In this document: positions 6,613 to 64,000 of the stretch, piece by piece
Position numbering within the stretch: position 1 is the first letter of the stretch
How the letters are laid out: each line of letters begins with the position of its first letter
NCBI GenBank assembly: GCA_965205235.1
Contig: CBDBGD010000008.1
Coordinates: 204,514 to 268,513 of the forward strand
DNA from: Dehalococcoidia bacterium
GTDB lineage: Bacteria > Chloroflexota > Dehalococcoidia > Lucifugimonadales > UBA1127
Direction of reading: 5' to 3'
DNA length: 64,000 bases
Program-made: the position numbers and the translations under genes
Notes under the pieces: model-generated
The model's input: the letters and a program-made list of their open reading frames with translations, nothing else
Databases searched by the model: none
Told to the model about the DNA's origin: nothing

Positions 6613-7254
6613 ATGCCGGTCCACTTCGAGGACGACAAGCTCCGCATCCACAAGGTCGTCGCCAGCCCCTACGACAACAACGCCTACGTCATCGTCTGCC
6701 GGGCCACCGGCGAGAGCGTCGTCGTCGACGCCCCCCGCGAGGTGGACAAGGTCATCGCGGAGACCCAGGGGACCAAGGTGAGGTCCGTCCTCATCACCCA
6801 CAGCCACTTCGACCACATCGAGGGCTTCGCAGCCATGCGGGCCAAGCTCGACACGTCCTACGCCATCCACCAGGACGACGCGCCCCGCCTGCCCTCACCG
6901 CCCGACTACTACCTCGAGGAGGGCGACGTCATTCCCGTGGGCAACCTCTCCCTGCAGGTGCTCTTCACCCCCGGCCACACGCCTGGCGGCGTCTGCCTGC
7001 TCATGCCGGGCCACCTCTTCTCAGGCGACACCCTGTTCCCCGGCGGCCCCGGCAAGACCGTCGGCCCGGACGAGTTCCGACAGGTCGTCGAAAGTATCAC
7101 CGCCCGGCTGCTGCCCCTCCCCGCCGACACCGCCGTCTACCCCGGCCACGGCGGCGACACCACCATCCGACAGTCCGGCGAGGAGTACGCCGCCTTCGCC
7201 GTGCGGCCCCACCCGTCCGACCTCCACGGCGACGTCCTCTGGCTTACGAGCTAG
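6613..7254 (+). CDS. MBL-fold metallo-hydrolase (glyoxalase II-like)
   Basis: THSHFDH, TPGHTPG, SGDTLF, PGHG. Confidence 0.9.
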   Translation: MPVHFEDDKLRIHKVVASPYDNNAYVIVCRATGESVVVDAPREVDKVIAETQGTKVRSVLITHSHFDHIEGFAAMRAKLDTSYAIHQDDAPRLPSPPDYYLEEGDVIPVGNLSLQVLFTPGHTPGGVCLLMPGHLFSGDTLFPGGPGKTVGPDEFRQVVESITARLLPLPADTAVYPGHGGDTTIRQSGEEYAAFAVRPHPSDLHGDVLWLTS

Positions 7255-7257
7255 CGC

Positions 7258-8484
7258 CTAGCACCTCCACGGAATGTGGCCGGGGTACTGCGATGCCTTG
7301 GCGCTCTCTTGCCAGCAGGCAAGGTCGTCGAGCGTCGACTCCCAAGCGCGTTCGAGCGTTTGCAGCCGCACAAAGACGTTGGTTGGGACTGTGCACCGCT
7401 GACCGCGCTCGCAGTACCGGTCGTAGAGAGCAAAATAGGCCGCAACGGCCTCCTTCCACGTGTCGATGGCCTCGTTGACCAGCTCTCTGAGCTCGGCGTT
7501 CTCGGGCCGGACGTTCCGGTGCATCTCAACGATGTAGCCGCGGATGTTCTGCTCCGGTATCCAGCATCCGTCCGCCGCCAGGTTGTTGTCCCCCTTGGGC
7601 CAGTAGTAGTGCACCCCACCGCGTACCTCGATCGCCTCGACGCGATGGGCCGTCCCCCGGCCCGAAACATCGTCCCCGCAACCCGGATGAAACGCGATGG
7701 TCGCACCCACGGTGATGTCCTCCGGTCGAAAGTCCTCCAGCCACGTCGCCTCGTCCAGGCACGTCACCACCGGCTCCATGCTCCCCGTGCAGGCGAACCC
7801 GCTGCGCCGTTTCGCGTCCACGCCCAGGATGAGCGGCTTGCGCGCCTCCTCCAGCCCCAGGATCTCCTGCCGTAGCGTCCGTATCTCCTCCCGAAGCCCC
7901 TCCGCCGTCCCCGCTTGCGCCTTCAGATCTTCGAATTGGCCGGTGAGCGTCATGTGGGACGTCTCGAGTGCGTTGTGCGTGGCGGTCAGGGCGCCAAGCT
8001 CAAAGTTGGCGCTGGCAAGCTCTCCCCGCAGTCCGTCCCTGTCCGCGATGGTCGTCGTCAGGTCGGCCCTCAGCCCGTCGTTCTCACTCGACAGGGCGAT
8101 GTTCGTGTCGTTGGCAGCTCGCAGGTCGGTCTCCAGGTCATCGTTGGCCGCCTCCACCGCTTCCTTGGCCGTCTCCAGGAGGCGGTTCTCCGCCGTCAGG
8201 TCCACGTTCGCCGACCGCTGCTCCGCGAGCGCATCGTCGGTCTCCCGCAGGTCGGCCTGCGTGTCCGCCAGGTCGTCCTGCGTCTCGGCGAGCGTGACCT
8301 TGGTGGCCGAAAGAGTGGCGAGGGTGCCGCTGAGCACCTTCTCGGTCTCCGTCAGAGCGGCCTGGGTCTCGGCGAGGAGGTCGTTGCTCTCGCGAAGCTC
8401 CACGTACAGCCACACCGCGAGGCCTCCCACGGCGAGAATCAGAATAGCGGCGACGACGACGATGCCACGGTAACCTGCGAACAT
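7258..8484 (-). CDS. membrane-anchored coiled-coil protein with S26 (signal peptidase I-like) domain
   Basis: N-terminal TM, long heptad region, then TGSMEP, HRV and KGDNN motifs. Confidence 0.7.
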   Translation of the reverse strand: MFAGYRGIVVVAAILILAVGGLAVWLYVELRESNDLLAETQAALTETEKVLSGTLATLSATKVTLAETQDDLADTQADLRETDDALAEQRSANVDLTAENRLLETAKEAVEAANDDLETDLRAANDTNIALSSENDGLRADLTTTIADRDGLRGELASANFELGALTATHNALETSHMTLTGQFEDLKAQAGTAEGLREEIRTLRQEILGLEEARKPLILGVDAKRRSGFACTGSMEPVVTCLDEATWLEDFRPEDITVGATIAFHPGCGDDVSGRGTAHRVEAIEVRGGVHYYWPKGDNNLAADGCWIPEQNIRGYIVEMHRNVRPENAELRELVNEAIDTWKEAVAAYFALYDRYCERGQRCTVPTNVFVRLQTLERAWESTLDDLACWQESAKASQYPGHIPWRC

Positions 8485-9585: not shown

Positions 9586-10554
9586 ATGACCATTCCCACC
9601 GAACAGCAGTATCCCTACGAGAATCTGGACCGCCTCGTCCGCGTGGTCATGCGGCCCAAGGGCATGTCCGCCAAGAGCCTCCTCAACGCGCTCCTCTACG
9701 CCGAGGCTCGCGGCGATGCCCCAATCTCCTACGACATCGCGTGCGCGCTCGACCCGGCCGCGCCCCGCACCGTCGGCATCTTCACCGGCGCCAGCGAGCC
9801 GGAGCACTACCCCAACGGCGAGAACGACGGCCCCCTCGGCACGATCATGCTCGCCGAGGGCCTCCGAAAGGTCGGCCACAGCGTCGGCCTCTTCATCGAC
9901 CCGCAGCTCCGGCCCGTCATGGGCGCGCTCATGGACTACGTCGGCTACCGCTATCCCGTCACCGTGCTCGACATCGACTCGCCGGAGAACAACGACCCCC
10001 TCGCCGACGGCCTCCAGGTCGCCATCGCCGTCGAGAAGGCGGGCACCAACCCCGCCGGCAAGGTCCACTCCATCACCGGCTTCACCCGCGAGGGCACCCG
10101 CGCCAAGGTCGATGGCCTCTTCCGCCGCGTCGAGGAGCAGGGCGGCATCACCGTCAGCGCCTGCGACGGCATCAACGAGATCGGCTTCGGCGCCATCTAC
10201 GACGCCGTTGCCGCCGCCGTCCCCTGGGCCACCGAATGCCGCTGCGGCTGCGAGCGCGGCGTGATGTGCTCCACGCCCGTCACCTACCTCTACCCCACTG
10301 CCATCTCCAACTGGGGCGCCTATGCCCTGGTCGCAGCCATGGCGCTGTACACCGCCAACCCGGCCCTCATCCACACCCCGGACGTCGAGCGCGACCTTGA
10401 GCAGATCGCCCTCGACTACGACGTCCGCGACGGCAGCCTCGGCGAGGCGGGCCTGTCGATGGACGGCGTGCCCCTGGCCGTCACCCAGTCCATGCTGGCC
10501 ATGATGCGGCACCTGGTGGAGGTCTCCCTGACCACCTACGTCCGCCCCTACTAG
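9586..10554 (+). CDS. D-glutamate cyclase-like (DUF4392) protein
   Basis: ENDGPLG, AVEKAG, DGINEIGFG, SNWGAY motifs. Confidence 0.75.
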   Translation: MTIPTEQQYPYENLDRLVRVVMRPKGMSAKSLLNALLYAEARGDAPISYDIACALDPAAPRTVGIFTGASEPEHYPNGENDGPLGTIMLAEGLRKVGHSVGLFIDPQLRPVMGALMDYVGYRYPVTVLDIDSPENNDPLADGLQVAIAVEKAGTNPAGKVHSITGFTREGTRAKVDGLFRRVEEQGGITVSACDGINEIGFGAIYDAVAAAVPWATECRCGCERGVMCSTPVTYLYPTAISNWGAYALVAAMALYTANPALIHTPDVERDLEQIALDYDVRDGSLGEAGLSMDGVPLAVTQSMLAMMRHLVEVSLTTYVRPY

Positions 10555-10586
10555 CGCCTGTTCCACCAACGGAGGCAGCGTCGAAC

Positions 10587-11276
10587 ATGGCCGAATTCCT
10601 GACCACCACCGGGATAAGTAGTGAGTTGGAGAAGATCATCAAAGGGTCGCAGCGGGGCAGGCTGCTGCTCATCTGCCCCTACCTCAAGTTCAGCCGTAGG
10701 ATTAAGGAGTTGCTCGAATTTCAGGCAAAACGCTGGAAGACGAGCATCTACATTGTGTATAGAAAGAAGCCTGACCTCGAGGAGACCAAGTGGTTGGACG
10801 AAAACAGCGTGTACGCCTTTTTCCGAGAAAATCTCCATACCAAGTGCTATATGAACGACACTCACGCTCTCGTCACATCCATGAACCTGCACGAGTCCTC
10901 ACAGGTGAACAATGATGAGATGGGCATCCTGGTGTCAGTCCAAGACGACCCCGAACTCTACCAGGAAATCAGGGATGAAGCCGACCATATTCTCAGACAG
11001 AGCATGGCTGCAAGGAAAACGAGCCCGGCCCGGGCTGTAGGGCAAACTGCACAACCCGCGTCTGGATTCTGCCTGCGCTGCGCTTCTGCGATCCCATTCG
11101 CTCCGGCACGCCCATATTGCAACTCGCACTATCGAAGTTGGGCCAGATACCAGAACAAGAATGAAGCATCCAAAGAGAAACACTGTCACGCCTGCGGTGA
11201 GAAGCACGGCGCTAGTATGGCCAAACCCGTGTGCTTGTCCTGTTACCGGAAGTGGCCGCTCGTAGGAACGCGATGA
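10587..11276 (+). CDS. single PLD (HKD) domain protein with Cys-rich C-terminal zinc-finger region
   Basis: LHTKCYMND...VTSMNL...EMG; CxxC, YCxxH, CxxC, CxxC tail; lower GC than neighbours. Confidence 0.8.
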   Translation: MAEFLTTTGISSELEKIIKGSQRGRLLLICPYLKFSRRIKELLEFQAKRWKTSIYIVYRKKPDLEETKWLDENSVYAFFRENLHTKCYMNDTHALVTSMNLHESSQVNNDEMGILVSVQDDPELYQEIRDEADHILRQSMAARKTSPARAVGQTAQPASGFCLRCASAIPFAPARPYCNSHYRSWARYQNKNEASKEKHCHACGEKHGASMAKPVCLSCYRKWPLVGTR

Positions 11277-53259: not shown

Positions 53260-54156
53260 CTAGGGCGCTCCTGTGTCCGTTAGCCGTTCGCTCAGGTCCC
53301 AGAGACCGGAGGCCAGCCCGGCGTCGTAGCTCAGGGCAGACGATGGGACGGGGCGACCGGCCACGAAGTACTGCCCTGTGGTCCCCTCCACCTCTGGCGA
53401 GGTTGCCAGGTAGACCACCTCCTGCGCCGCTTTCGAGGGGTCGATTCCCAGGACGCCGACCACGGCGTTGACTGCCAGACCCAGGAGGCCGTTGTTGCGT
53501 GCCATGTTGGTGCGGACCAGACCGGGGTGCATGGCGTTGACGGTCACCCCCGAACCTTCGAGTCGTCGGGCTAACTCGCAGGTGAACAGCAGGTTGCACA
53601 GCTTGGAGCGAGCGTAGGCCCGGTGACGGCCGCTGTGGTCGGGGTCGGGCAGGTCTTCCAGCGATAGGTTGTCGACCGAACGGTGGTAGCTCGAGGAGAC
53701 GTTGACGACCCGTGCCGGGGCGGAGTCCTTCAGCAGGTCCAAGAGCAGCGTGGTCAACAGGAAGTGTCCCAGGTGATTCAGAGCGAAGGTCATTTCGATG
53801 CCGTCGACGCTGCGGCGCTTGGAGAGGAACACAGCGCCGGCGTTGTTCACCAGGACGTCCAGCCTTGGCAGCTGCTCCCTGGCCTGGCCGGCCAGCCTGC
53901 GCACGTCTGCTTGCGACGACAGGTCCGTCGCCAGGTGACTGACTCGGTGGTTGCCGGTCTCCTCGACGATACGCGCTACGGCTGCGGCAGTCTTCGCGGC
54001 GCTCCGGCTGGCGATGACAACGGTCGCACCCAAGCGGGCCAGCTCCCGGGTGGCCTCAAGGCCGATGCCGCTGCTGCCGCCGGTTATCAGGCAGGTCTTC
54101 CCTTCCATGTGTGGTGTGTCCATCAGCGCAACTTGCCTCGGTTCATGCGTAGCCAT
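53260..54156 (-). CDS. SDR oxidoreductase (retinol dehydrogenase-like)
   Basis: TGGSSGIG, NNAG, NHLGHF, YARSK, HPG.V.T. Confidence 0.92.
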   Translation of the reverse strand: MATHEPRQVALMDTPHMEGKTCLITGGSSGIGLEATRELARLGATVVIASRSAAKTAAAVARIVEETGNHRVSHLATDLSSQADVRRLAGQAREQLPRLDVLVNNAGAVFLSKRRSVDGIEMTFALNHLGHFLLTTLLLDLLKDSAPARVVNVSSSYHRSVDNLSLEDLPDPDHSGRHRAYARSKLCNLLFTCELARRLEGSGVTVNAMHPGLVRTNMARNNGLLGLAVNAVVGVLGIDPSKAAQEVVYLATSPEVEGTTGQYFVAGRPVPSSALSYDAGLASGLWDLSERLTDTGAP

Positions 54157-55942
54157 AGTCTCGGAACCAGCGCACCGAGACCGTCACGACCTCCCAACCA
54201 CCTGCACAGTCGTCGTTGTCGACAGTCGTAATCGTCGCAGTTCCGGTGCTGACAGTCTCCCCCGCGGCCAGACGGCCCCAAAGGCAATACGGTGGAGCCA
54301 ATGAGGCTTCATATGCTCTAGCGAGTCTCAGCCGTACGGCACGCCTGAAAGCTGGTGGGCCGGACTTGACGGTAGACAGAACCGAGCCGTTCAGCATGAT
54401 GTCCTCCGCCTTCCGGCCGGGTATCCGGCTGTCGTCCGGCATGGGCACGGTGTACCGGACGACAGCCTTCCCGGGCATGATGACGATCTCCTTGACGAAG
54501 GTCTGGATGAAGGCCCGGCGCTCGGTGAGCTCGCTCTCCCTGAGAAACTCGCTCATGTCCTGTGCGTAGGCCGCAATCGTTTCCACGTCGTCCAGGACCT
54601 CTCTGCGCTGGGACAGAATCGCCCTGGCTTCGGACGCCGCGGCTTCAAGGCGCTCCTGCCGATCGCGGTGCTCCCTGATGCGGTCCGAGGCGTCGGCCAT
54701 CTGGACGTTGTCGGTTGACTCGATGTACATCCAGATTCGACCCAGCTTGCGCTTCACGTCCTCAAGCTCATCCTCGATGGTCGCAAGCCGCTGGTTCTGC
54801 TCGGCAGTCACCCCGTCCATCTGCTCGTCCACGACCTTCACAAGGGCGTGGATGTTGCCCTCGGTGAGGATGTTGGAGCGGATGCTACCGACGATCATCT
54901 CCTCGAAGCGCCTGGCGTTGATCCTGGGAGCGTCGCAGGCATCCTTGCCGTGCTTCATGATGGACTGGCAGACGTAGTAGGAGAACTGGCCGCTCTTGGC
55001 GTCGTGGCCGCTGAAGGCCCGATTGCACGCCTTGCACTTGACCAGACCGCTGAGCATGTAGGTGCTCCCTACACGGCGGGGGTGAGTCCTGTTGGGCGCC
55101 CGGGAGCTCATCAGCCGCTTCACACGGAGGAACTGGGCCTTGGAGACGATGCCGGGGAACGCATTCTCTACGCGCACCGGCTCGGCCTTGCCCTTCCCAT
55201 TGAGGCCCCAGACCAGAGTGCCCATGTAGACTTCGTTTCTGAGCATGTTGTGAACAACCGTCTTCGACCATCGCTTGCCGGCGGGGCTGGCGATGCCCTC
55301 GTCGTTCAGGGTCTTGGCGATGTCGAGCATCCCCTTACCGGATTCGGCCATGTCGAAGATGCGCTTGATCACGTGAGACAAGTCCTCGTCAGGGTCCAGC
55401 CTAGGCCGCTTCTTGGCCCCGTCCTGCACCATCAGCTTGCGGTAGCCGTAGGGGACCCTGCTGGTGACCCAGAAGCCCCTGGACGCCGACTCGCGCATCC
55501 CTCGCGTGACCTCCTGGGCCAGATTCTCGCTGTAGAACTCGTCGACGCTTTCGATGATTCCCTCCAGCAACTTGCCGGTGGGGGAGTCGTCGGCCTGCTC
55601 GGTGATGGAGACGACGCGTACTCCCTTGCGTCGGAGCATGGACTTGAAGGCGACCGCGTGCTCACGCCTGCGGGTGAAGCGGCTGAACTTCCAGACCAAG
55701 ATTTCTTCGAAGGGGGCATCGGTCTTGGTGGCTTCGTCGATCATCTTGCGGAACTCAGGGCGGTCGGCTACGCGGCCGCTCTCGGCCTCGTCCACGTACT
55801 CGCGGGCGACGACATAGCCGTTCTTGTTTGCGTAGTCCCTGAGCGCCCTCATCTGGGCGGCGACGGACAGGTCCACGTCCTGGCGGTCGCTGGAGACCCT
55901 CGCGTAGAGGGCTGCGGGTGTGTAGTCTTGCTCGCTACTCAT
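54143..55942 (-). CDS. large serine recombinase
   Basis: YARVSS, ESG...RP, SRF.R, PYGY, LSGLVKC..C...YY.C zinc ribbon, coiled coil. Confidence 0.95.
   Translation of the reverse strand: MSSEQDYTPAALYARVSSDRQDVDLSVAAQMRALRDYANKNGYVVAREYVDEAESGRVADRPEFRKMIDEATKTDAPFEEILVWKFSRFTRRREHAVAFKSMLRRKGVRVVSITEQADDSPTGKLLEGIIESVDEFYSENLAQEVTRGMRESASRGFWVTSRVPYGYRKLMVQDGAKKRPRLDPDEDLSHVIKRIFDMAESGKGMLDIAKTLNDEGIASPAGKRWSKTVVHNMLRNEVYMGTLVWGLNGKGKAEPVRVENAFPGIVSKAQFLRVKRLMSSRAPNRTHPRRVGSTYMLSGLVKCKACNRAFSGHDAKSGQFSYYVCQSIMKHGKDACDAPRINARRFEEMIVGSIRSNILTEGNIHALVKVVDEQMDGVTAEQNQRLATIEDELEDVKRKLGRIWMYIESTDNVQMADASDRIREHRDRQERLEAAASEARAILSQRREVLDDVETIAAYAQDMSEFLRESELTERRAFIQTFVKEIVIMPGKAVVRYTVPMPDDSRIPGRKAEDIMLNGSVLSTVKSGPPAFRRAVRLRLARAYEASLAPPYCLWGRLAAGETVSTGTATITTVDNDDCAGGWEVVTVSVRWFRDYGYA
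54353..54361 (-). other. candidate att core resembling a tRNA 3' end (GGCCCACCA)
   Basis: Lies where recombinase-like sequence ends (VKSGPP). Confidence 0.45.
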
Positions 55943-56156
55943 CGGTTGGTCCTCCTCGTGCGGGGCGTCTATTCCTGCGGGCCTCGACCCGTTGACGACG
56001 CTGCGTTCGCAGCCACTCCTGGTCGTCCAAATACATCCGGATCGCCTCTCGCAGGAACTCGCTCATGGTCCGGTCTTCCTCTTCTATGAATCTCCTGACC
56101 TGCTCGTCCATCTCCGGGGGGAGGGACAGAGTTATGGTCTTTCTCTTTCTGGGCAT
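55935..56156 (-). CDS. CopG/RHH regulator
   Basis: TITLSLP.EM...RTMSEFLREAIR.Y; overlaps the recombinase start. Confidence 0.88.
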   Translation of the reverse strand: MPRKRKTITLSLPPEMDEQVRRFIEEEDRTMSEFLREAIRMYLDDQEWLRTQRRQRVEARRNRRPARGGPTDE

Positions 56157-56171
56157 TTCTCAACCCTTTGG

Positions 56172-56223
56172 GGTAACACCGGGTGTTACCGGCATTGTAG
56201 GCGAACAGGAATACAGTTGTCAA
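56172..56223 (-). promoter_or_regulatory. promoter (TTGACA-18-TACAAT) with perfect palindromic operator
   Basis: -35 at 56218-56223, -10 at 56194-56199, GGTAACACC-G-GGTGTTACC at 56172-56190. Confidence 0.7.
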
Positions 56224-56233
56224 GGATGCGCAG

Positions 56234-57161
56234 TGTTATGCGTAGATATCCGACAGTGCCTGCCCTCCTCTCCTCAATGGTGGTTCCAGGCCAAGGCTCA
56301 GGTGGGGTCGGTGATAGTGGTACCGCTCCAAGAACCGTTCCACGTTGCTCCGACACCCGGACAGGTCCTCGACACCATACCGCACCCAGCCCAGGCACTC
56401 CTTGCGCAGCGTCCGGTTGAAGCTCTCGATGTAGGCCTGCTCGTTCTTCTTGTACGGCCGGGCAACGCGGTGGTGCTGGCAGTAGGTCAGCACCCGGTCT
56501 GCGAAAGCCTCTTTGAACTCACTGCCCCCATCGGTTTGGATCAGTTCCACCCTGCCGTCGAAGCGCCGGGCCATGGCCAGCTCCAGGAACGCACAGCCGT
56601 AGGCGGCCGTCAGCGCTGGCGCCAGGAAGACGTCTGCCTCTCTGGTGTAGATGTCGATGCCCGTGAAGGCAAAGAGACCGCCGAAGAACACGGTGTCCAT
56701 CTGGACCACCTGACGAGGGCCGCCGGCGACCGGCACGGGTCCCCGGGGGCGGTGCTTCTTCCACCTGGAGCGGATGACGTACTTCTCCCGAAGGATCTCA
56801 TACACCTTGGGCACGGACAGATGCACCCCATATTCCCGTTCCAGGAAGTAGACGATCTTCTGCCCGCAGCACCCGGACTCCCGCTCTCGGATGGCCCACA
56901 CCCAGCGCTTCACGACCGGGTCGACCTGCCGCTTTGGGCGCGGCCCTTTCTTCGCCTGCTGATAGCGGTCGAGGAAAGGCAGCAGCCCCTCCTGCTGGAT
57001 GCCGCAGATCCAGAGGTGCACCGTCTCCCGGTGTTTCCCCAGGCGTTGGGCGATCCGAGCTTTCGGGACGCCCTGCTGGTACAGCTCCCAGGCCAGCGCA
57101 ATCATCGTGAGGTTTGACATGTCCATGAGCATACATGGACTGTCGGATTTCTACGGCAACA
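56234..57161. mobile_element. IS481-like insertion sequence (928 bp)
   Basis: TGT...ACA ends; imperfect IRs TGTTATGCGTAGATATCCGACAGT and TGTTGCCGTAGAAATCCGACAGT; no clear target duplication. Confidence 0.8.
56236..57126 (-). CDS. DDE (rve) transposase
   Basis: HTH N-terminus, QMDT, QTDGGSEF, N...ESFNRT, Y...RPH.SL. Confidence 0.9.
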   Translation of the reverse strand: MDMSNLTMIALAWELYQQGVPKARIAQRLGKHRETVHLWICGIQQEGLLPFLDRYQQAKKGPRPKRQVDPVVKRWVWAIRERESGCCGQKIVYFLEREYGVHLSVPKVYEILREKYVIRSRWKKHRPRGPVPVAGGPRQVVQMDTVFFGGLFAFTGIDIYTREADVFLAPALTAAYGCAFLELAMARRFDGRVELIQTDGGSEFKEAFADRVLTYCQHHRVARPYKKNEQAYIESFNRTLRKECLGWVRYGVEDLSGCRSNVERFLERYHYHRPHLSLGLEPPLRRGGQALSDIYA

Positions 57162-57328
57162 TTGCGGGTCGGCGAGCCCGACGGTTAGGCTTCGAAGATT
57201 GGGGGGGCGACTCCCTTTGTCTCCATTCACCGCGTCCCCTTGGTCAGAATGTCGAAACCTTCGCTCAGATCAACCTCTGTCCTCTTGATTGAACAGAGAA
57301 CGTGAATGCTCGCAAGGCGGTGCCCCTC

Positions 57329-58729
57329 CTAATCGCCCGGATCTTTGGTGAGCCTTTCGATTAGAGCAGGTGCAACCAATAGCATGGGCTTCCCGTCCAG
57401 CAGTGTGACGCAGCCGCTTATAGTGATCCTGTCACCAAGATTGACGCCCTTGAGTTGGTCCCGCTCCTTCTCGGTTGCGAAGAAGCACTCGACTTGGGTG
57501 AAGAATGTTTCGTCCCACAGAGCCAGTTCTACCTTCCCGGGTTGCCCATATGCTGCATGCACGACCCTGATGTCATAGATAACCCCCCTCAGCGTGCGAC
57601 ATTCAGAGTGATATGTTGGCCCTCCTGTTGGTTCATCCCTGTGGCTGGGCCACAGCAGCAGGTCTGGCTCGTCTGCTCGGATTTCACCGACGAGCGATAC
57701 CCACTTGCCGTCAAGGCCGTGGTAATCCTCGGCGTCCCGCTTGTAGAACTGGGCAACTACCTCGCGCTGGCGTTCTTCGGAGTTGACCACAACCTCGACG
57801 ACGCCATACGGGTCAAACCCGTCGGGTATCCTCACCGCCCGTACGCGACCTTCTACCAGAGCCGGTACGGACCGGGGCCTAGGCTTGCCTTCATCATCCT
57901 CTGCGCTTGGGGATGTGGTCGTCGTGATGCTGACCTTGATTGGCGAGTTGTCTCTGAACACCCGGTTCGAGGCAGACAACAGGAAATCGGAGGCACTCAA
58001 TAGCTTGGGCATATCTAAGGAGAGATCAGGAGAGGTGAGGTCGGTGATGTACCTCCACTTCTTGTAGAGTCTATTGTTCTCTGAGAGGAATTCCCGGAAG
58101 CTACCCTCGAAGTGGGCTCTCTTTGCATCCGACTGGTTCCACCAGTTCTCCAGCTGCTTCTTCTCTTCCTCATCAAGCAAATTGAATAGGTCGATGAGGT
58201 CGTGCGTTCGCCATTGCCGGATGTCTCCGGGGTTCGACGATGCCAACTTTCCCAGAACTTCCAGATACGCCTTGAGTGACAGCTCAAGGGTGAGGGCGAC
58301 CTGCTGCGCGTAGGCCAAGGCCTGGCCCTTGCCCGCGTCGGTGTTCCAGAAGTGACCGTTCTCACCGTGGTGATCGAACATTCCCTTCAGGTTGATGCCG
58401 GACACCGGAATCAACCTTGATGCCTCGTAGTACATTCTCGCGAGGTGCGTGAATGTTGTGATGCCGGGGACCTCGGTTGCGAGTGACTTGACGTCCAAAC
58501 TCAGCGCAACTGCTTTCTTCTTTTCCGCCTCTGTGAACTTCCGCTGGTTTCCCTTCTTGTCTACGGCGGCTATCACGTGGACATGCTTTTGCGAGATTGG
58601 ATGTACTGGTATCTCACTGCCGTGGCGTTGCGTGACCGTGGCGAAACAGGCAGCGGCATCTTCCAGACTGGAGTGGGCTCCATGTATTTGAGAACACCGG
58701 GCGAAAATGCTGAATACTTCGTAGGGCAT
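57329..58729 (-). CDS. HEPN-like domain plus two putative OB folds
   Basis: ELSLKA...THDL...WRY, then two beta-rich repeats (VEGRV..VSLVGEI and LRGVI..LWDET..GDRITISG); low GC. Confidence 0.6.
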   Translation of the reverse strand: MPYEVFSIFARCSQIHGAHSSLEDAAACFATVTQRHGSEIPVHPISQKHVHVIAAVDKKGNQRKFTEAEKKKAVALSLDVKSLATEVPGITTFTHLARMYYEASRLIPVSGINLKGMFDHHGENGHFWNTDAGKGQALAYAQQVALTLELSLKAYLEVLGKLASSNPGDIRQWRTHDLIDLFNLLDEEEKKQLENWWNQSDAKRAHFEGSFREFLSENNRLYKKWRYITDLTSPDLSLDMPKLLSASDFLLSASNRVFRDNSPIKVSITTTTSPSAEDDEGKPRPRSVPALVEGRVRAVRIPDGFDPYGVVEVVVNSEERQREVVAQFYKRDAEDYHGLDGKWVSLVGEIRADEPDLLLWPSHRDEPTGGPTYHSECRTLRGVIYDIRVVHAAYGQPGKVELALWDETFFTQVECFFATEKERDQLKGVNLGDRITISGCVTLLDGKPMLLVAPALIERLTKDPGD

Positions 58730-58765
58730 GCTCAGCGGCTCCTCTTCGGCCTTCGGAGGGTCGTT

Positions 58766-59800
58766 TCAACCAGAAAAGGAGCGCTCCACTTGGAACAGGT
58801 ATGAATAGGCGGTGACCTTGCTCGCCCCCGCAGACTTGAAGCCAAGAGAGCTTGAGGTCAGGCCCAGCGCAGACAGGACTGTTCCAATTGGATCGCCAGC
58901 AACCGCAGACCAAGCGCTGCCAGCCAGCCCAAAGGACCAAGACGGGAGGTTTTTCCCAAGTGCACTTCGAGTGGACCGTTGAAGTTCGTGGGCCATGTCG
59001 GATATCTCCTGCCTTCGCTGGAGGAGCATCGCAGCTCGTTCTTCTTGGGTATCAATGTATGCAAGCTCGGCCATGAATCCCCGCAGATCTCGCATATATG
59101 CCCGATGCGCATCCTTGTGCTCATTTCGAAAATCAAGAAGCTCGTCGATGGGAACCGACTCCAGATCAAAGCTCACGGGTTCAAGGTCGAAGGCGATTAC
59201 GCTGCTGCGGGATGGCATCCGCTCCCTCGAAAGAGTCTCTACCAGGTCCTTGACGGCACACCTGTCGCGGGTTGCTGGATGGACGTTCATGTCGTGCTTC
59301 TTGCCTGCCGAGCGGGATAGTTGGGCGAGCAGGACAAGAATAGTCGTGCGCACTACTGGGTGAAGAGGAATCGAAACACCATCTTCGCTGGGCTTTGCCA
59401 GCCCCTTCTGTTGAAGTTCCGACACGACCCACTTGGCCAAGCTGAGGTCGGCCCCGTAGCCGATGCGAGATTGGGACAATTCGTGGAACATGACGTCCTT
59501 GGCGAGGTCATCAAAGACACCGTTTGCGAGCAGCCCGATTACCGCCTCAGCCAGCGCCTTGGTCATCTCCTCGTCGATCCAATAGCCGGGTTCCAGGACC
59601 TCAAGCAAGCCCAAGTCTTCCAGCGGCTCAGCCAGCGCGGGGGCAGCCACATGATGTCGGCCGTACATGTAGTGTGGTAGCAGGATGGAGATTTTGTCGA
59701 AGAACAGAAGCAGTGATTTGACCCACCCCCCTTCACCCCAACCCCAATAAGGTGCAGGGTAGTAGTACGCAACATCCAGACGTTCGCTCAACTGGTTCAC
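58766..59800 (-). CDS. hypothetical protein (DUF6236-like) with hydrophobic C-terminus
   Basis: YYP...W.K..LLFFD N-terminus, IDELLDFR, Gly/Ala-rich hairpin near the C-terminus; low GC. Confidence 0.6.
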   Translation of the reverse strand: MNQLSERLDVAYYYPAPYWGWGEGGWVKSLLLFFDKISILLPHYMYGRHHVAAPALAEPLEDLGLLEVLEPGYWIDEEMTKALAEAVIGLLANGVFDDLAKDVMFHELSQSRIGYGADLSLAKWVVSELQQKGLAKPSEDGVSIPLHPVVRTTILVLLAQLSRSAGKKHDMNVHPATRDRCAVKDLVETLSRERMPSRSSVIAFDLEPVSFDLESVPIDELLDFRNEHKDAHRAYMRDLRGFMAELAYIDTQEERAAMLLQRRQEISDMAHELQRSTRSALGKNLPSWSFGLAGSAWSAVAGDPIGTVLSALGLTSSSLGFKSAGASKVTAYSYLFQVERSFSG

Positions 59801-59867
59801 CTACCTCTAGCCGCTAACCTTCAATCTGGATCAAATTCCCTCGGCAACTCTGAGAGAGCCAGGTCAA

Positions 59868-60299
59868 TCACCTCTGGTCGTTCGCCATTGCTACGCGTCC
59901 TGCGACACTCACGGGCCCGCGCCTTCCGGGGACCACCTCCACCGGCGTGGGGATGAGCCACTCGGCGCCAGCCTTCGTAGCCCCCCGCACACGGCCATCG
60001 CGGGCCAACTTGCGCACCCTGCGCTCCGACACGCCCAACCGATTGGCCGCCTCCTTCACCGTGACGTTGGCGACGTCATCGGCGGGGGCCTCGGACGCCA
60101 GCTCGAACTCGACGGGGCTCGGCTCGGTGAGTGTGCTCATTTCGTGGATGAGGAAGCCGATGACCTCGCCGTTGTCGTCCAGCCGCTTGAGGACGCGCTC
60201 GTCGTCGGTCGGAGTGAAGTACCCGTCTCGGAGCGCCCACAGCACCTCAAGCATGTCGCCTTCGTGGTCATAGGAGACGAACACCTTCCTGGTCGTCAT
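59868..60299 (-). CDS. DUF2283-like antitoxin fused to an excisionase-type HTH
   Basis: YD.EGD.L..., GEVIGF.I, then TVKEAA.RLGVSERRV...G...W.IP. Confidence 0.75.
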   Translation of the reverse strand: MTTRKVFVSYDHEGDMLEVLWALRDGYFTPTDDERVLKRLDDNGEVIGFLIHEMSTLTEPSPVEFELASEAPADDVANVTVKEAANRLGVSERRVRKLARDGRVRGATKAGAEWLIPTPVEVVPGRRGPVSVAGRVAMANDQR

Positions 60300-60301
60300 G
60301 G

Positions 60302-60610
60302 TCACGCTCCTTTGATTCTCCGGTCGAGATAGGCGGTGAGGATGAAGGAGTAGTCCGGCCCTCGCTTCACCACCAGGCACACATAGCGATTCCTGCCCTG
60401 CAGGTCCGGGTAGAGTCGGTAGTAGAGTCGGACCGCCGGACTCGACCTGGAGGGACTCACCGCGCCCGGGCTGGCGAGGGTCTCGGCGAACCGGTGCAGA
60501 TGGAAGGCCACTTCAGGGTGCCTTCGCAGGATGTGCCGGAGGCGCTCGTCGGTGAGCCGAACCTCGTTTCCATGCTCATCGGTGAACCGCCGCACGCCGG
60601 TCTCCATCAC
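60302..60610 (-). CDS. RelE/BECR-fold putative toxin (PBECR2-like)
   Basis: RLTDER..HI..RHPE, V.VK.....FILTAY. Confidence 0.7.
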   Translation of the reverse strand: MMETGVRRFTDEHGNEVRLTDERLRHILRRHPEVAFHLHRFAETLASPGAVSPSRSSPAVRLYYRLYPDLQGRNRYVCLVVKRGPDYSFILTAYLDRRIKGA

Positions 60611-60710
60611 CGGATACCGTTCCGTAAAGTATACCGTGAGACTGCATGGACCGGCAATCCCTGGACGGCGTGACGAGGGGTGGTAATAGTGAGAGTCGGA
60701 GGGAAGTGCA

Positions 60711-61037
60711 TCAGCATTCCTCCGCGGTCGGCCCCGGCTCGGCGTCCTCCGATGACGGCGGAGCTGCCTGCCGTCCCATGTGGGCGCGGATGGCGACGTC
60801 GGCCAGGATGCGGAACCCCCTGAGGAAGATCTCCCGCTGCTTGGGGGTGTATCCCGCCAATGGGTCGTCGTGCGGCGATTCGTCCTCGCCGCCTCTCTGC
60901 GGTTTCCTGCTTTCTTCGTTGTCTCTCATGGTGTGCAGTCGCAGCAGTGGGGTAACCGGTCCACTGGCCTCTCGTTTCAGGTCTCTGGATTCGCCGCCCG
61001 GCGCGGACGGAAGGGGCGAACGCCGGTCAGCGTCCAT
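60711..61037 (-). CDS. small hypothetical protein of the integrative element
   Basis: Helical core YT.KQRE...RGFRILA.VAIRAH; start uncertain. Confidence 0.5.
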   Translation of the reverse strand: MDADRRSPLPSAPGGESRDLKREASGPVTPLLRLHTMRDNEESRKPQRGGEDESPHDDPLAGYTPKQREIFLRGFRILADVAIRAHMGRQAAPPSSEDAEPGPTAEEC

Positions 61038-61083
61038 GCCGGCTCATGCACCGCCGTTGCGGTTGCGCGGGCGGGCGATCCGG

Positions 61084-61407
61084 TCAGTCCCTGAGGTAGG
61101 TCAACTGGAACTCCCGGGCCAGGAGGATTGCGACCCCTCCGCGGATGGTGCTGGCGAAGTCGTAGAGGGCGTGCATCGCGCCTCCGCTGGGTTCCACGTC
61201 CTCCCTGTGCCACCGGTACATCTGCTTGTAATCGACGCCGACGGCTGCTGCGAGGCCGCTCCAGGTGAGGCCGCTGGTCTCTTTGAGGCGCCTGAGCCTG
61301 TCGGGGAAGTCGTTGGGAAGCAGGCTCCCGTAGGGGAGGCGCTCCTGGTCGTCCGGGATCAGTTTCAGTGTCCCGCCGGGGCGGGACGCGCGGCTAGTGT
61401 TGGTCAT
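61084..61407 (-). CDS. XRE-like HTH protein
   Basis: RL..LK..SGLTW..LA..VGV...YRW...EP. Confidence 0.75.
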   Translation of the reverse strand: MTNTSRASRPGGTLKLIPDDQERLPYGSLLPNDFPDRLRRLKETSGLTWSGLAAAVGVDYKQMYRWHREDVEPSGGAMHALYDFASTIRGGVAILLAREFQLTYLRD

Positions 61408-61675
61408 GTCTATCCTCCAGTCTGAACAGCTCTTCGAATCGGGTGATTCCCAGGGCCACTTGCATCCGTTGTCGGATGCGGCCCGAGGGTGCTCGCCCCT
61501 CGTTGACCAGCGTCGAGAGGTAGCCGGGACTCATCCCGACCTCCCTGGCGAGCCAGTTCTGGGAGCGGTTCAGCACTGCCAACCGCCTCCAGAGCGCCGC
61601 CGTGTCGAGCCGGACAACGGTCCGTCCTGCACGCCTCGGGCGTCCCTTGGCTTCGTTGGCGTCTGGCAAAGACAT
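61394..61675 (-). CDS. XRE-like HTH protein
   Basis: SQNWLAREVGMS..YLS......PS...EELF; AGGAG RBS. Confidence 0.8.
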   Translation of the reverse strand: MSLPDANEAKGRPRRAGRTVVRLDTAALWRRLAVLNRSQNWLAREVGMSPGYLSTLVNEGRAPSGRIRQRMQVALGITRFEELFRLEDRHDQH

Positions 61676-61721
61676 GGCTTCTCTTCTCCTGTATCAGATG
61701 TGCCGGGAGGAGTGCTTGGGC

Positions 61722-63398
61722 TCACGCTCCCGGCGTTGGACCCTGTTCACGGGGTGGCATGGCCTGAAGGGACTCCCAATGGCTTGGGGTGCGCCAAGCC
61801 AGCCCCAGGGGCCCCAGGGCGTTGACGGCCTCCCTGTGGGAGACCCACAGAGGCACGCTCACCCCCTCCGCCCGCATCTCCTCCCGCGCCACCCGCAGGA
61901 AGTGGGTCAGAGCGATCTCGTTGTCCAAGACGACCAGTACCGCGGGCCGGGTTCCGTGGTCGTCGGTGGGCCTGTGCGATGAGTAGTAGCGGAGATAGGG
62001 TGCGAGCCGCTCCGAAATGGTGGATGGGCGCACCGCGCGACGCTCCCATTCAAGGAAGAAGGGCCACGTTGTATCGCCCTTCCTCAGGACGCCGAAGGCG
62101 TCGGGGTTGACGGCGCGCATCCCGTCGTCGTGCCGGAAGTGGCGGGAGGCCCTCCGCGGTGGGTCGAGCTGCACGATCTCCCAACCCAGGTGGCGGGCTT
62201 GGACGGTGAGCCCGGCCAGGAAGACGTGTACGGCGGCGGTGTGCTCGATGTTCCTGAGGAGCTGCCGACCTCGCCTGCCGGTGACGTTGCGCCACTCGAA
62301 GGGGGAGTCGGCGTCCTCGGGGGCGATGCTCCAGCGCCGCTTCCCAACGCCCACGGAGGTGCGGTCCCTGCGGGCCAGAAGGGTCAGCGCCCGGTCGGTG
62401 ACGGCCAGCCGCCCCCCCGCCTCGCGGTGTCGCGCCACGAGATTGAATCCCTCCAGCGGGTTGAGCAGCTGGGTGACCCTCGGCGGCGACACGTCCAGCA
62501 TCCCCGCCAGGTCCGCAAGGGAAATCCAGGGCCAGTTGTGTATGACGTCGAGGGCGCGCTTCTCGGCGGGCCTGAGCATCACCGGCAGCATGTGGTCCGC
62601 GATGTCGCCCGCCGCGCCCCTATCGGGAATGTCGGCGGGAACGGAGACACGCTGGGGCTCGTCCTCCTCGGGTAGCTCTCCGCCGGGGTCGGTGCGGTCG
62701 AGGATGTAGCGCAGGTCGACGGAGGCGGCGACCCTGGCGGGGCTCCATATCCGGTCGTCCTCCCCGGCCAGGACGGCATCGCGCTCCAGGGCGAAGAGGG
62801 CGGGCACGTCGGTGGTGGAGAGCACCCTGCGGGCGTGCCGGAGGCGCACGTCGTCTGCCATGAGGACGAGCACCGCTCCGGGCATGGGCTCCTCGCGCAT
62901 CCGCCAGAGCCGCTTGGCGAAGCCGGACCGGTCGGCGGTGAGGCCCTGCCTGATAATGCCCACGGTCCTGCCGTCGGGCAGGGTTACGGCGGCGTCCATC
63001 CGCACGGACCGGTACCAGCGGAACCGGATGGGGAAGGCGATGCCGGAGAGGACGGCGGCCAGGCGATAGATGACGGCCAGGGCGTCGAGGCGTTCCATTA
63101 GGCCGCGCCGCCACTGGGCCGAGAGGGGGCGGGTGCGCACCAGCAGGTGAAGCGATACGTCCTCCTCCTCGGCGAGCCTTCGCAGCCCCGCCCCGGTCAG
63201 ATGAAACCTGCGCACCGGGGGGAGCGGGTCGATGGAGTGGAGCACGGAGGCGCAGATGCCGTCCGCCTCCAGCTTCTCCACGGCTTGGTGGACCGCGCCC
63301 CTGGACCTGCCGGTGACGGCGGCCATCTCCTGTCGGTCAAGGAAGGGCATCCAGCCCAGGGCGTGGAGCACCTGGGACTCGCAGCCTTCGGGTTTCAT
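61722..63398 (-). CDS. replication-relaxation (Replic_Relax) family protein, apparently two tandem units
   Basis: Two wHTH-like starts (MPFLD and WPWIS); second unit has HT..V, PDA.G and FFLEWER. Confidence 0.7.
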   Translation of the reverse strand: MKPEGCESQVLHALGWMPFLDRQEMAAVTGRSRGAVHQAVEKLEADGICASVLHSIDPLPPVRRFHLTGAGLRRLAEEEDVSLHLLVRTRPLSAQWRRGLMERLDALAVIYRLAAVLSGIAFPIRFRWYRSVRMDAAVTLPDGRTVGIIRQGLTADRSGFAKRLWRMREEPMPGAVLVLMADDVRLRHARRVLSTTDVPALFALERDAVLAGEDDRIWSPARVAASVDLRYILDRTDPGGELPEEDEPQRVSVPADIPDRGAAGDIADHMLPVMLRPAEKRALDVIHNWPWISLADLAGMLDVSPPRVTQLLNPLEGFNLVARHREAGGRLAVTDRALTLLARRDRTSVGVGKRRWSIAPEDADSPFEWRNVTGRRGRQLLRNIEHTAAVHVFLAGLTVQARHLGWEIVQLDPPRRASRHFRHDDGMRAVNPDAFGVLRKGDTTWPFFLEWERRAVRPSTISERLAPYLRYYSSHRPTDDHGTRPAVLVVLDNEIALTHFLRVAREEMRAEGVSVPLWVSHREAVNALGPLGLAWRTPSHWESLQAMPPREQGPTPGA

Positions 63399-64000
63399 GG
63401 CTGAGCCTCCTCTTCAACGCCGGTCTCGGTTGATTCGCCGGTCGCATCCTCGTCGGCCTCCGCGGGGGCCTTCATGGGCTCTTCGGTCTGCTCCCCCTCC
63501 TCTTCCCGGGCGGCGTTCTCGATGTCCTCGACGCGCCTGCGGTAGTTGCCCACCTTCCTGTGGCCGTCGGCATCGGCGTAGTCCGCCTGCCGATTGGACA
63601 TGGTGTAGACGTGGGACGCGTCGCGAATGCGGTCGGCGACGGCGGGGTCTCCGTCCTCCGGCTTGCGCACCATCATCGAGAAGGCGGGCATCCGTTCCTT
63701 GCCCACGGTGGCGCGGACGTAGCAGTGGTGGACGGGGAGCGACGTGATGTCGTCCTCGGTCACCCGCTCCTTGCCCAGCTCCCAGACCAGCGTCCGGGCG
63801 TCGTTGCCCGCCACCTGGAAGACGGCCAGGCATCCGATGTTGGCGAGCAGGGTGTCCCGCATGGTCCGGGAGAGATCGTCCAGCTTAGCGAGGCTCTGGG
63901 TCGCCAGCACGAAGCTGGCCCCGAACTTCCCAAGCTCGGAGAGCATCGACTCGTAGTCCACGCCGGGCATGGACTGCATCTCGTCGACCACCACCAGCGC
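63395..64000 (-). CDS. VirD4/TraD-like coupling ATPase, C-terminal part
   Basis: Walker B VVDEMQ, LSE..KFG, LATQ.L, LLAN.G, DA..L; begins beyond the window. Confidence 0.85.
   Translation of the reverse strand, partial: ALVVVDEMQSMPGVDYESMLSELGKFGASFVLATQSLAKLDDLSRTMRDTLLANIGCLAVFQVAGNDARTLVWELGKERVTEDDITSLPVHHCYVRATVGKERMPAFSMMVRKPEDGDPAVADRIRDASHVYTMSNRQADYADADGHRKVGNYRRRVEDIENAAREEEGEQTEEPMKAPAEADEDATGESTETGVEEEAQP

Follow-up and report, generated by a model that had tools for sequence, protein, structure and literature searches.

We analyzed a window of 64,000 nucleotides from a Dehalococcoidia bacterium (GenBank assembly GCA_965205235.1, contig CBDBGD010000008.1, positions 204,514 to 268,513 of the forward strand), and in particular two neighboring minus-strand genes, here called A and B, which a sequence-only reading had proposed as a new two-gene defense module. 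Gene A (57329-58729) encodes 466 amino acids from an ATG start, and gene B (58766-59800), which lies upstream of A, encodes 344 amino acids from a GTG. Both are real genes, since we found 116 homologs of A and at least 1204 homologs of B. Most B homologs are 341 amino acids long and begin with MSER, so that translation of B probably starts at the TTG at 59791, which gives the same length. As that reading had stated, the two genes are co-oriented and 36 bp apart, in agreement with the list of open reading frames (ORFs), in which both are on the minus strand, and the short motifs that it quoted are present and conserved in the alignments of 39 A homologs and 35 B homologs.

The spacer between B and A (58730-58765, minus strand, 36 bp) contains a GAGGAG ribosome-binding site 9 nt ahead of the ATG of A. 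Its final ~25 nt are similar to the region preceding the start codon in A homologs, and these are all that the window's A retains of the native upstream region of its homologs. The stop codon of B lies 36 nt before the start of A. A weak terminator-like hairpin (58797-58782) falls within the 3' end of B, in a scan that gave 6 such sites versus 3.0 expected. Promoter and terminator scans did not rise above shuffled sequences, and no tandem repeats possibly encoding an RNA antitoxin were found near A. Among the sequencing runs listed with this DNA, two from one study, none was of RNA.

The two genes lie in a patch of low GC content, from 0.555 to 0.580 over 57000-59999 compared with 0.64 to 0.71 on either side (1-kb windows). 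The earlier description of this patch as a mobile-element cargo slot, between a toxin-antitoxin-like pair and an insertion sequence (IS), agrees with both the GC windows and the Pfam assignments of the flanking genes. Their setting is an integrative conjugative element, which takes in 54143 to 64000 of the window and continues into the next DNA of the contig; it is identified as such because relaxase, coupling protein, VirB4/TraC-like ATPase and PrgI-like genes adjoin. A was not found in 60 close relatives of the bacterium, 20 of the same family among them, and therefore arrived with the element.

Domain architecture and putative active site of protein A

The AlphaFold model of A, built with the 39 homologs, has a pLDDT of 84.9 and consists of four parts. 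The first is a small alpha/beta domain (residues 1-85; 58475-58729, minus strand) with invariant C12, H16 and H19 and a near-invariant C28, a constellation that suggests a possible metal site. Scanned alone, these residues had no Pfam match, and no structural match to them was present among those listed. A HEPN-like helical domain follows (residues 91-258, about 91-261 in the model; 57956-58459, minus strand) and then 2 OB folds, the first at residues 285-365 (57635-57877, minus strand), with beta strands at 287-363 in the model, and the second, of the tRNA_anti-like type, at residues 371-465 (57335-57619, minus strand).

A HEPN-type core followed by two OB folds was what the sequence-only reading had seen in this protein, and the architecture is now supported by the model, by structural matches, by profile relatives and by a dimer model. 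The helical domain forms the four-helix up-down bundle that characterizes the HEPN superfamily, and the five-stranded beta-barrel characteristic of OB folds occurs twice in tandem. Tandem-OB matches were obtained with Teb1 AB (E 9.8e-5), Taq SSB and HIN-200, a further structure comparison gave matches extending from residue 285 or 298 to 465, and the OB folds showed similarity to SSB, RPA and PriB. In the helical domain, the motifs ELSLKA, THDL and WRY correspond to E149, K153, H176, R226 and Y227, which are invariant over the 39 sequences, as is E157.

We also searched the profile of A against 1.84 billion representatives and obtained 85 matches, among which 39 of the 40 weakest were scanned with Pfam, leaving out P0293 (84 amino acids). 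Results showed 32 small proteins that match A solely over the helical domain; 13 of them match the Pfam HEPN family PF05168 at E <= 0.01, and 7 exceed its 22-bit cut-off. Moreover, 6 weak matches cover the second OB fold, and all 6 are tRNA_anti-like proteins. A TPR protein, P0275, which matched positions 8-43 of A, was dismissed as a compositional match. When the small HEPN proteins were aligned with A, residues E149, K153, H176 and R226 were invariant in them too and Y227 was near-invariant. These stand-alone proteins (P0274-P0311, 113-216 amino acids), which carry the same E-x3-K / T-H-D-L / W-R-Y constellation, appear to represent a separate HEPN-T subfamily whose site has the upstream His. 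A is thus a probable relative of HEPN domains, through a transitive link via the small stand-alone proteins. Features from the ESM protein language model placed residues 1-270 of A nearest to HEPN clusters at 0.85, a value that we take as a lead only.

The histidine H176, which is invariant in the A family, lies 50 residues upstream of R226. This arrangement matches a variant in the available text of Anantharaman et al. 2013 (PMC3710099), where AbiV and some HEPN-T families, AF0298 among them, lose the histidine of the canonical motif and keep a conserved histidine located N-terminally, which was proposed to form an alternative active site. The same text reports that HEPN-T genes cluster with restriction-modification (R-M) operons and that HEPN domains lacking catalytic residues serve as binding domains.

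We modeled a homodimer of residues 86-270 of A. The ipSAE score was 0.71 compared with 0.40 for the best control, with at least 94% agreement of contacts between runs and a pLDDT of at least 79. This ipSAE mark is reached by 20 of 30 solved homodimers and by 1 of 23 solved single chains. In the modeled dimer, R226 sits in the interface. The model thus supports dimerization of A via its HEPN-T-type domain, short of demonstrating it, and the score may partly reflect likeness to solved HEPN dimers.

Searches of dedicated collections gave little for either protein. NCBIfam returned noise only for A and B, and PADLOC had no match for either of them at E <= 0.1, which agrees, for each protein taken separately, with the earlier remark that the pair was not recognized as a named system. 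PHROGs had no match for A, for B or for a 679-residue ORF from a related element (locus L008, see below).

Protein B and the separate distribution of the two families

The likeness of B to DUF6236 (PF19749), suggested by the sequence-only reading, is supported at the superfamily level. The window's B matches this family at E 0.013 and 15.1 bits, below the gathering cut-off of 26.2 bits, while 12 of 35 members of the B family, about a third, match it at E <= 0.01 (best 2.2e-5), and in the ESM Atlas B lies at 0.98 beside DUF6236-bearing clusters. B is therefore no curated member but a divergent DUF6236 relative at the superfamily level, and DUF6236 itself is catalogued as a family of unknown function. 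The 35 aligned members form a separate, highly conserved branch, with a mean column identity of 72% and with conserved YYP and W.K.LLLFFD motifs.

The model of B (pLDDT 69.5) has an alpha/beta N-terminal part, a long helical hairpin at residues 218-281 and a Gly/Ala/Ser-rich tail in which the pLDDT falls below 50. On the Kyte-Doolittle scale, 1.6 is the usual mark for a membrane helix. The best 19-residue mean in the tail of B is 1.16, and over the 35 homologs the median is 1.46 and the maximum 1.92. The Gly/Ala-rich tail first described is thus less hydrophobic than stated, and with this marginal value a membrane-active role of B would be no more than a possibility. Foldseek searches of PDB and BFVD gave no match for B at E <= 0.001, and PDB searched by sequence with B and with its profile gave nothing meaningful. 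A full-text literature search for 'DUF6236' found no paper; in the supplements of the DefensePredictor study (PMC13092281, Table S6 and others), as far as these are available, DUF6236 proteins are listed as 'Predicted novel defense gene' in a machine-learning screen.

The neighbors of B do not recur. The largest neighbor cluster comprises a Mu-type transposase and an AAA_22 (TnsC/MuB-like) ATPase and was seen at 6 of 86 loci. In these six metagenome loci (L086, L097, L098, L113, L078 and L083), B follows the two genes, with a spacing of 64-65 nt in four of them, and is therefore also transposon cargo, riding at the transposon end. We also noticed a second, partial B-like ORF in tandem in L083 and L084, and in G366 (C1:571002-572020; L025/L026) a second, broken B-like copy with an internal TGA, forming two ORFs beside the intact copy. 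L031 (6739-10667) encodes a CBASS oligonucleotide cyclase (PADLOC E 7.6e-143), then a 173-residue ORF without family and, as the second gene downstream of the cyclase, a B-like gene (42% identity), with an AriA-like ATPase nearby; this being a single case among 87 loci, we did not take it as a link between CBASS and B.

We then compared where the two families occur. No B homolog was found within 10 kb of A at any of 15 species-representative genome loci, whose A homologs are 42-70% identical to that of the window (the best tblastn match was a chance one, E 1.4, and the window control worked). Similarly, A was found within 8 kb of B at none of 7 genome loci from 6 genomes. It was also found at none of 80 metagenome loci with B, where the sequence reaches 1.5 kb or more beyond B on the downstream side in 39 and on the upstream side in 43. 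The proposal of a two-gene module is thus not supported, as homologs of A and B essentially never co-occur, and neither conserved co-occurrence nor conserved adjacency, as would characterize a two-gene defense system, was seen at these 102 other loci. In one sample with 400 other genomes of the phylum, 5 genomes have A and 7 have B, the unpublished G173 being one of these 7. Two genomes have both genes: in G302 they are on different contigs and in G366 at 746.7 kb and 1240.7 kb, ~494 kb apart. Furthermore, related conjugative elements carry A without B, namely L008, with a relaxase and a serine recombinase, and L011, with a coupling protein and a relaxase; in L008, the unrelated 679-residue ORF mentioned above, without family match, occupies the place of B. 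The B family is also ~10 times larger than the A family. We conclude that A and B are not a two-gene system and travel separately.

Where a phylum is given in the records of the A homologs, it is always Chloroflexi/Chloroflexota, Dehalococcoidia or SAR202, and this uncharacterized family appears to be restricted to Chloroflexota. In 7 of the 15 genome loci (L002, L004, L005, L006, L007, L015 and L009), A is directly preceded by a Type IIG gene. In the first six, the upstream gene is co-oriented with A and encodes a protein of 1120-1215 amino acids with N6_Mtase and Type_ISP_C domains (truncated in L005). PADLOC calls this protein a Type IIG restriction enzyme-methyltransferase (E 1.5e-87 to 5.4e-85 in the four copies scanned), and the gene in L009 belongs to another IIG family (PADLOC E 3e-59). 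The 3' end of the IIG gene and the ~200-240 nt spacer before A are conserved at the DNA level, even where genes have been inserted, which are HicB/HicA in L002, L006 and L005 and a pentapeptide-repeat gene in L007. More broadly, R-M genes lie at most three genes from A in 9 of 15 loci, including L011 (an Eco57I/MmeI-type methylase) and L012 (HsdS), and the surroundings of the homologs thus have the character of defense islands. The other A loci contain integrases, IS elements, or PIN, NYN, RES or PIN-TPR-GreABC genes.

Several A loci showed additional features. HicA was confirmed by Pfam in L002 (9136-9580, E 3.7e-19) and L006 (9001-9409, E 9e-17), and a HicB-like gene was recognized by six-frame reading in L005 (9559-9792). 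In these three loci, the HicB-like/HicA genes lie between the body of the Type IIG gene and a detached C-terminal Type_ISP_C fragment; the arrival of the HicBA pair seems either to have interrupted the 3' end of the restriction gene or to have produced a second copy of this end. In L015 (6960-11115), the A homolog is split by an IS1595-type transposase, a 122-residue ORF and a methylase-HNH gene, with residues 1-169 encoded at 7137-7643 and residues 101-462 at 10001-11115. Upstream of A in L001 (3472-8199), we found a 1280-residue TPR protein that includes a PIN-TPR-GreABC domain, as well as another protein, matching Pfam HEPN, and an IS3-type transposase is inserted just ahead of A. Finally, A is followed by homologous proteins of 395 amino acids in L004 (11477-12664) and 448 amino acids in L007 (11317-12663), which among known families match PADLOC PD-T7-5 alone, and weakly (E 1e-4 and 4e-4).

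Interpretation of the two genes and comparison with known systems

On balance, we consider it likely, though well short of certain, that A and B, both of which look defense-related, are independent of each other, each being a single-gene cargo: A a HEPN-OB nuclease candidate and B a divergent member of the DUF6236 superfamily. They would have come to adjoin in a variable region of the integrative conjugative element. In this reading, A would be a latent RNase, self-contained and able to sense nucleic acids, that dimerizes in the model through its HEPN-T-type helical domain and whose composite active site would be formed by R226 and the upstream H176, replacing the canonical Rx4-6H motif. The OB folds would bind single-stranded nucleic acid, either single-stranded DNA (ssDNA) from phage or plasmid replication or a tRNA substrate through its anticodon loop. 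By analogy with DARNA, PrrC and ApeA, binding might switch on RNA cleavage, so that the infected cell stops growing. Directly behind a Type IIG R-M gene, as in many relatives, A may serve as a second line of defense. B would move alone between defense islands, transposons and prophages, and in the window it seems to have replaced the native upstream region of A, so that A is probably transcribed from the promoter of B. The B-A pair would then be an operon by accretion and not by function.

A number of observations weigh against this interpretation. Pfam HEPN families gave no direct match to A even at E <= 10, and PDB sequences searched with A and with its profile gave nothing meaningful. No histidine is present 4-6 residues after R226, that is, the canonical Rx4-6H motif is missing and catalysis is not assured. 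In the literature searched, we found no member of the A family with a nuclease, binding or phage assay, and relatives of A or B were not found in viral contigs. In the available part of Table S6 of PMC13092281, the single DUF6236 protein tested (working id 6236) is marked defensive = 0. The Type IIG linkage of A may be partly inherited, since four of the seven linked loci (L002, L004, L005 and L006) correspond by coordinates to A matches of genomes in one family, f39. Lastly, the closest homologs of A (71-75% identity) and of B (79-87%) are on metagenome contigs of the same three sizes (212962, 120001 and 185201), compared here by size, and the B-A pair may therefore persist in close relatives of this element.

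This last observation also speaks for a true two-gene system in this lineage of elements, in which B would be a sensor, a membrane effector or an antitoxin for A. Such a system would fit the co-orientation of the genes, the 36 bp between them, which hold no convincing terminator, and the common low-GC patch. Yet we regard it as very improbable, considering the missing co-occurrence at the 102 other loci (0/15, 0/7 and 0/80), the distance between the genes in G302 and G366, the related elements that hold A without B, the ~10-fold difference in family size, and the absence from the window's copy of an upstream region that is common to the A homologs of L001, L002 and L004-L007.

The partner of A could instead be the restriction enzyme. 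A might be an accessory subunit of the Type IIG R-M system, resembling PrrC in being a latent nuclease that the R-M enzyme restrains, and the window's copy a displaced orphan on a conjugative element. The 7 loci with a Type IIG gene directly upstream and a conserved junction speak for it, as do two points described in the available text of PMC3710099, namely the precedent of PrrC with EcoprrI and the association generally seen between HEPN genes and R-M operons. However, the window and 8 of the 15 loci have no adjacent Type IIG gene, the HicBA pairs or the pentapeptide-repeat gene intervene in four loci, so that tight coupling is not required, and four of the linked loci fall in family f39. 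We therefore judge this arrangement unlikely. Somewhat more doubtful still is the possibility that A is no nuclease at all and that its helical domain is a dead HEPN-like module for dimerization or binding, in an ssDNA- or RNA-binding factor of mobile elements that would, for example, protect or regulate the transferred ssDNA. The missing Rx4-6H motif would fit such a role, together with the resemblance of the OB folds to SSB, RPA and PriB, the location of A, which in the window, in L008 and in L011 is a conjugative element, and the binding function reported for HEPN domains without catalytic residues in the same text (PMC3710099). On the other side, E149, K153, E157, H176 and R226 are invariant in the 39 sequences and all but E157 are invariant in the stand-alone relatives; R226 is placed in the modeled dimer interface, as in active HEPN sites; and most A loci are chromosomal defense islands beside R-M genes and not conjugation modules.

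Returning to A as an independent nuclease candidate, the systems that appear functionally nearest to it, by analogy, are DARNA and PrrC. DARNA/PD-T7-3 is described, in the available text of the preprint (bioRxiv 10.64898/2026.02.22.705581), as a single protein of 456 residues, a HEPN nuclease for tRNA that is switched on when phage SSB presents ssDNA. Like A, it is a single polypeptide of ~460 amino acids with a dimerizing HEPN domain, a separate nucleic-acid-binding part and a defense context, and the proposed logic, in which binding of single-stranded nucleic acid would turn on RNA cleavage, may be the same. The architectures are different: the HEPN domain of DARNA is N-terminal with R117x4H122 and is followed by a C-terminal all-helical Pds5-like fold, according to the same preprint text, whereas in A a further domain precedes the HEPN domain, which is a HEPN-T variant lacking the motif histidine, and two OB folds follow. 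Membership of A in DARNA/PD-T7-3 was ruled out by this architecture, in line with the negative PADLOC result. PADLOC 2.0 includes a PD-T7-3 model.

PrrC and RloC are similarly HEPN-superfamily RNases beside R-M genes and a possible second line of defense, as stated in the available text of PMC3710099, and the second OB fold of A resembles tRNA anticodon-binding domains. Unlike A, they have an N-terminal ABC ATPase and the canonical motif and belong to Type Ic R-M loci; A has no ATPase, as neither Pfam nor the model revealed a P-loop or ABC domain, and it lies behind Type IIG genes in only about half of its loci. The HEPN-T family PF05168, of the AF0298/2hsb type, shares with A the fold, the retained arginine, the loss of the motif histidine, the second conserved histidine on the N-terminal side and the clustering with R-M operons, as described in the same text (PMC3710099), but A reaches no Pfam HEPN model and is linked to the family transitively, through the stand-alone relatives. 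A fusion of HEPN to tandem OB folds is not described in the available text of PMC3710099, and no description of the domain combination of A was found in the literature searched.

HEPN nucleases are recurrent immune effectors, and how each of them is switched on is mostly unknown. A would offer a compact architecture with sensor (OB folds) and effector (variant HEPN) in one chain, well-defined invariant positions for mutation and a recurrent location behind Type IIG genes. We tentatively propose, as an idea that may well not hold, that A founds an undescribed class of single-protein immune nucleases, in which tandem OB folds, by reading the single-stranded nucleic acid of the invader, govern a non-canonical HEPN dimer whose site consists of R226 and H176; the OB folds would sense replication ssDNA, like DARNA, or clamp the anticodon loop of tRNA for cleavage, and behind Type IIG enzymes the protein would act as a fail-safe for cases in which restriction is overcome. 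If active, A would realize the ssDNA-activated RNase logic of DARNA a second time, with an unrelated structure, and would be a test case for the alternative HEPN active site predicted in 2013. Both the architecture and the variant active site of A are testable, and what is shown so far consists of sequence, models and genomic context. The locus also calls for caution, as close packing of two genes in a cargo slot was no sign of a functional pair.

Flanking genes of the element

Directly upstream of B, a PBECR2 nuclease (60302-60610, minus strand; PBECR2 E 1.8e-6, Pfam) and an HTH_17 protein (59868-60380, minus strand; HTH_17 E 4e-7, Pfam) are encoded by genes overlapping by 79 nt. They form a toxin-antitoxin-like pair of a BECR-fold protein and an HTH_17 protein, the N-terminal half of the latter being without family assignment. 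Two HTH regulators (Pfam) lie between this pair and the conjugation genes, which start with a Replic_Relax relaxase (61722-63398, minus strand; Pfam) and the beginning of a type IV coupling protein (63395 to the window end at 64000, minus strand; Pfam). The next 20 kb of the contig contain the remaining part of the coupling protein (TrwB_AAD_bind), 830 amino acids in total, a VirB4/TraC-like ATPase of 802 amino acids and a PrgI-like protein. On the other side of A, we found an IS-type transposase (56236-57132, minus strand; rve_3 E 1.5e-12, rve and HTH_23, Pfam), an RHH protein (55935-56156; Pfam) and the large serine recombinase of the element (54143-55942, minus strand), with Resolvase (E 1.6e-32), Recombinase and Zn_ribbon_recom domains (Pfam).

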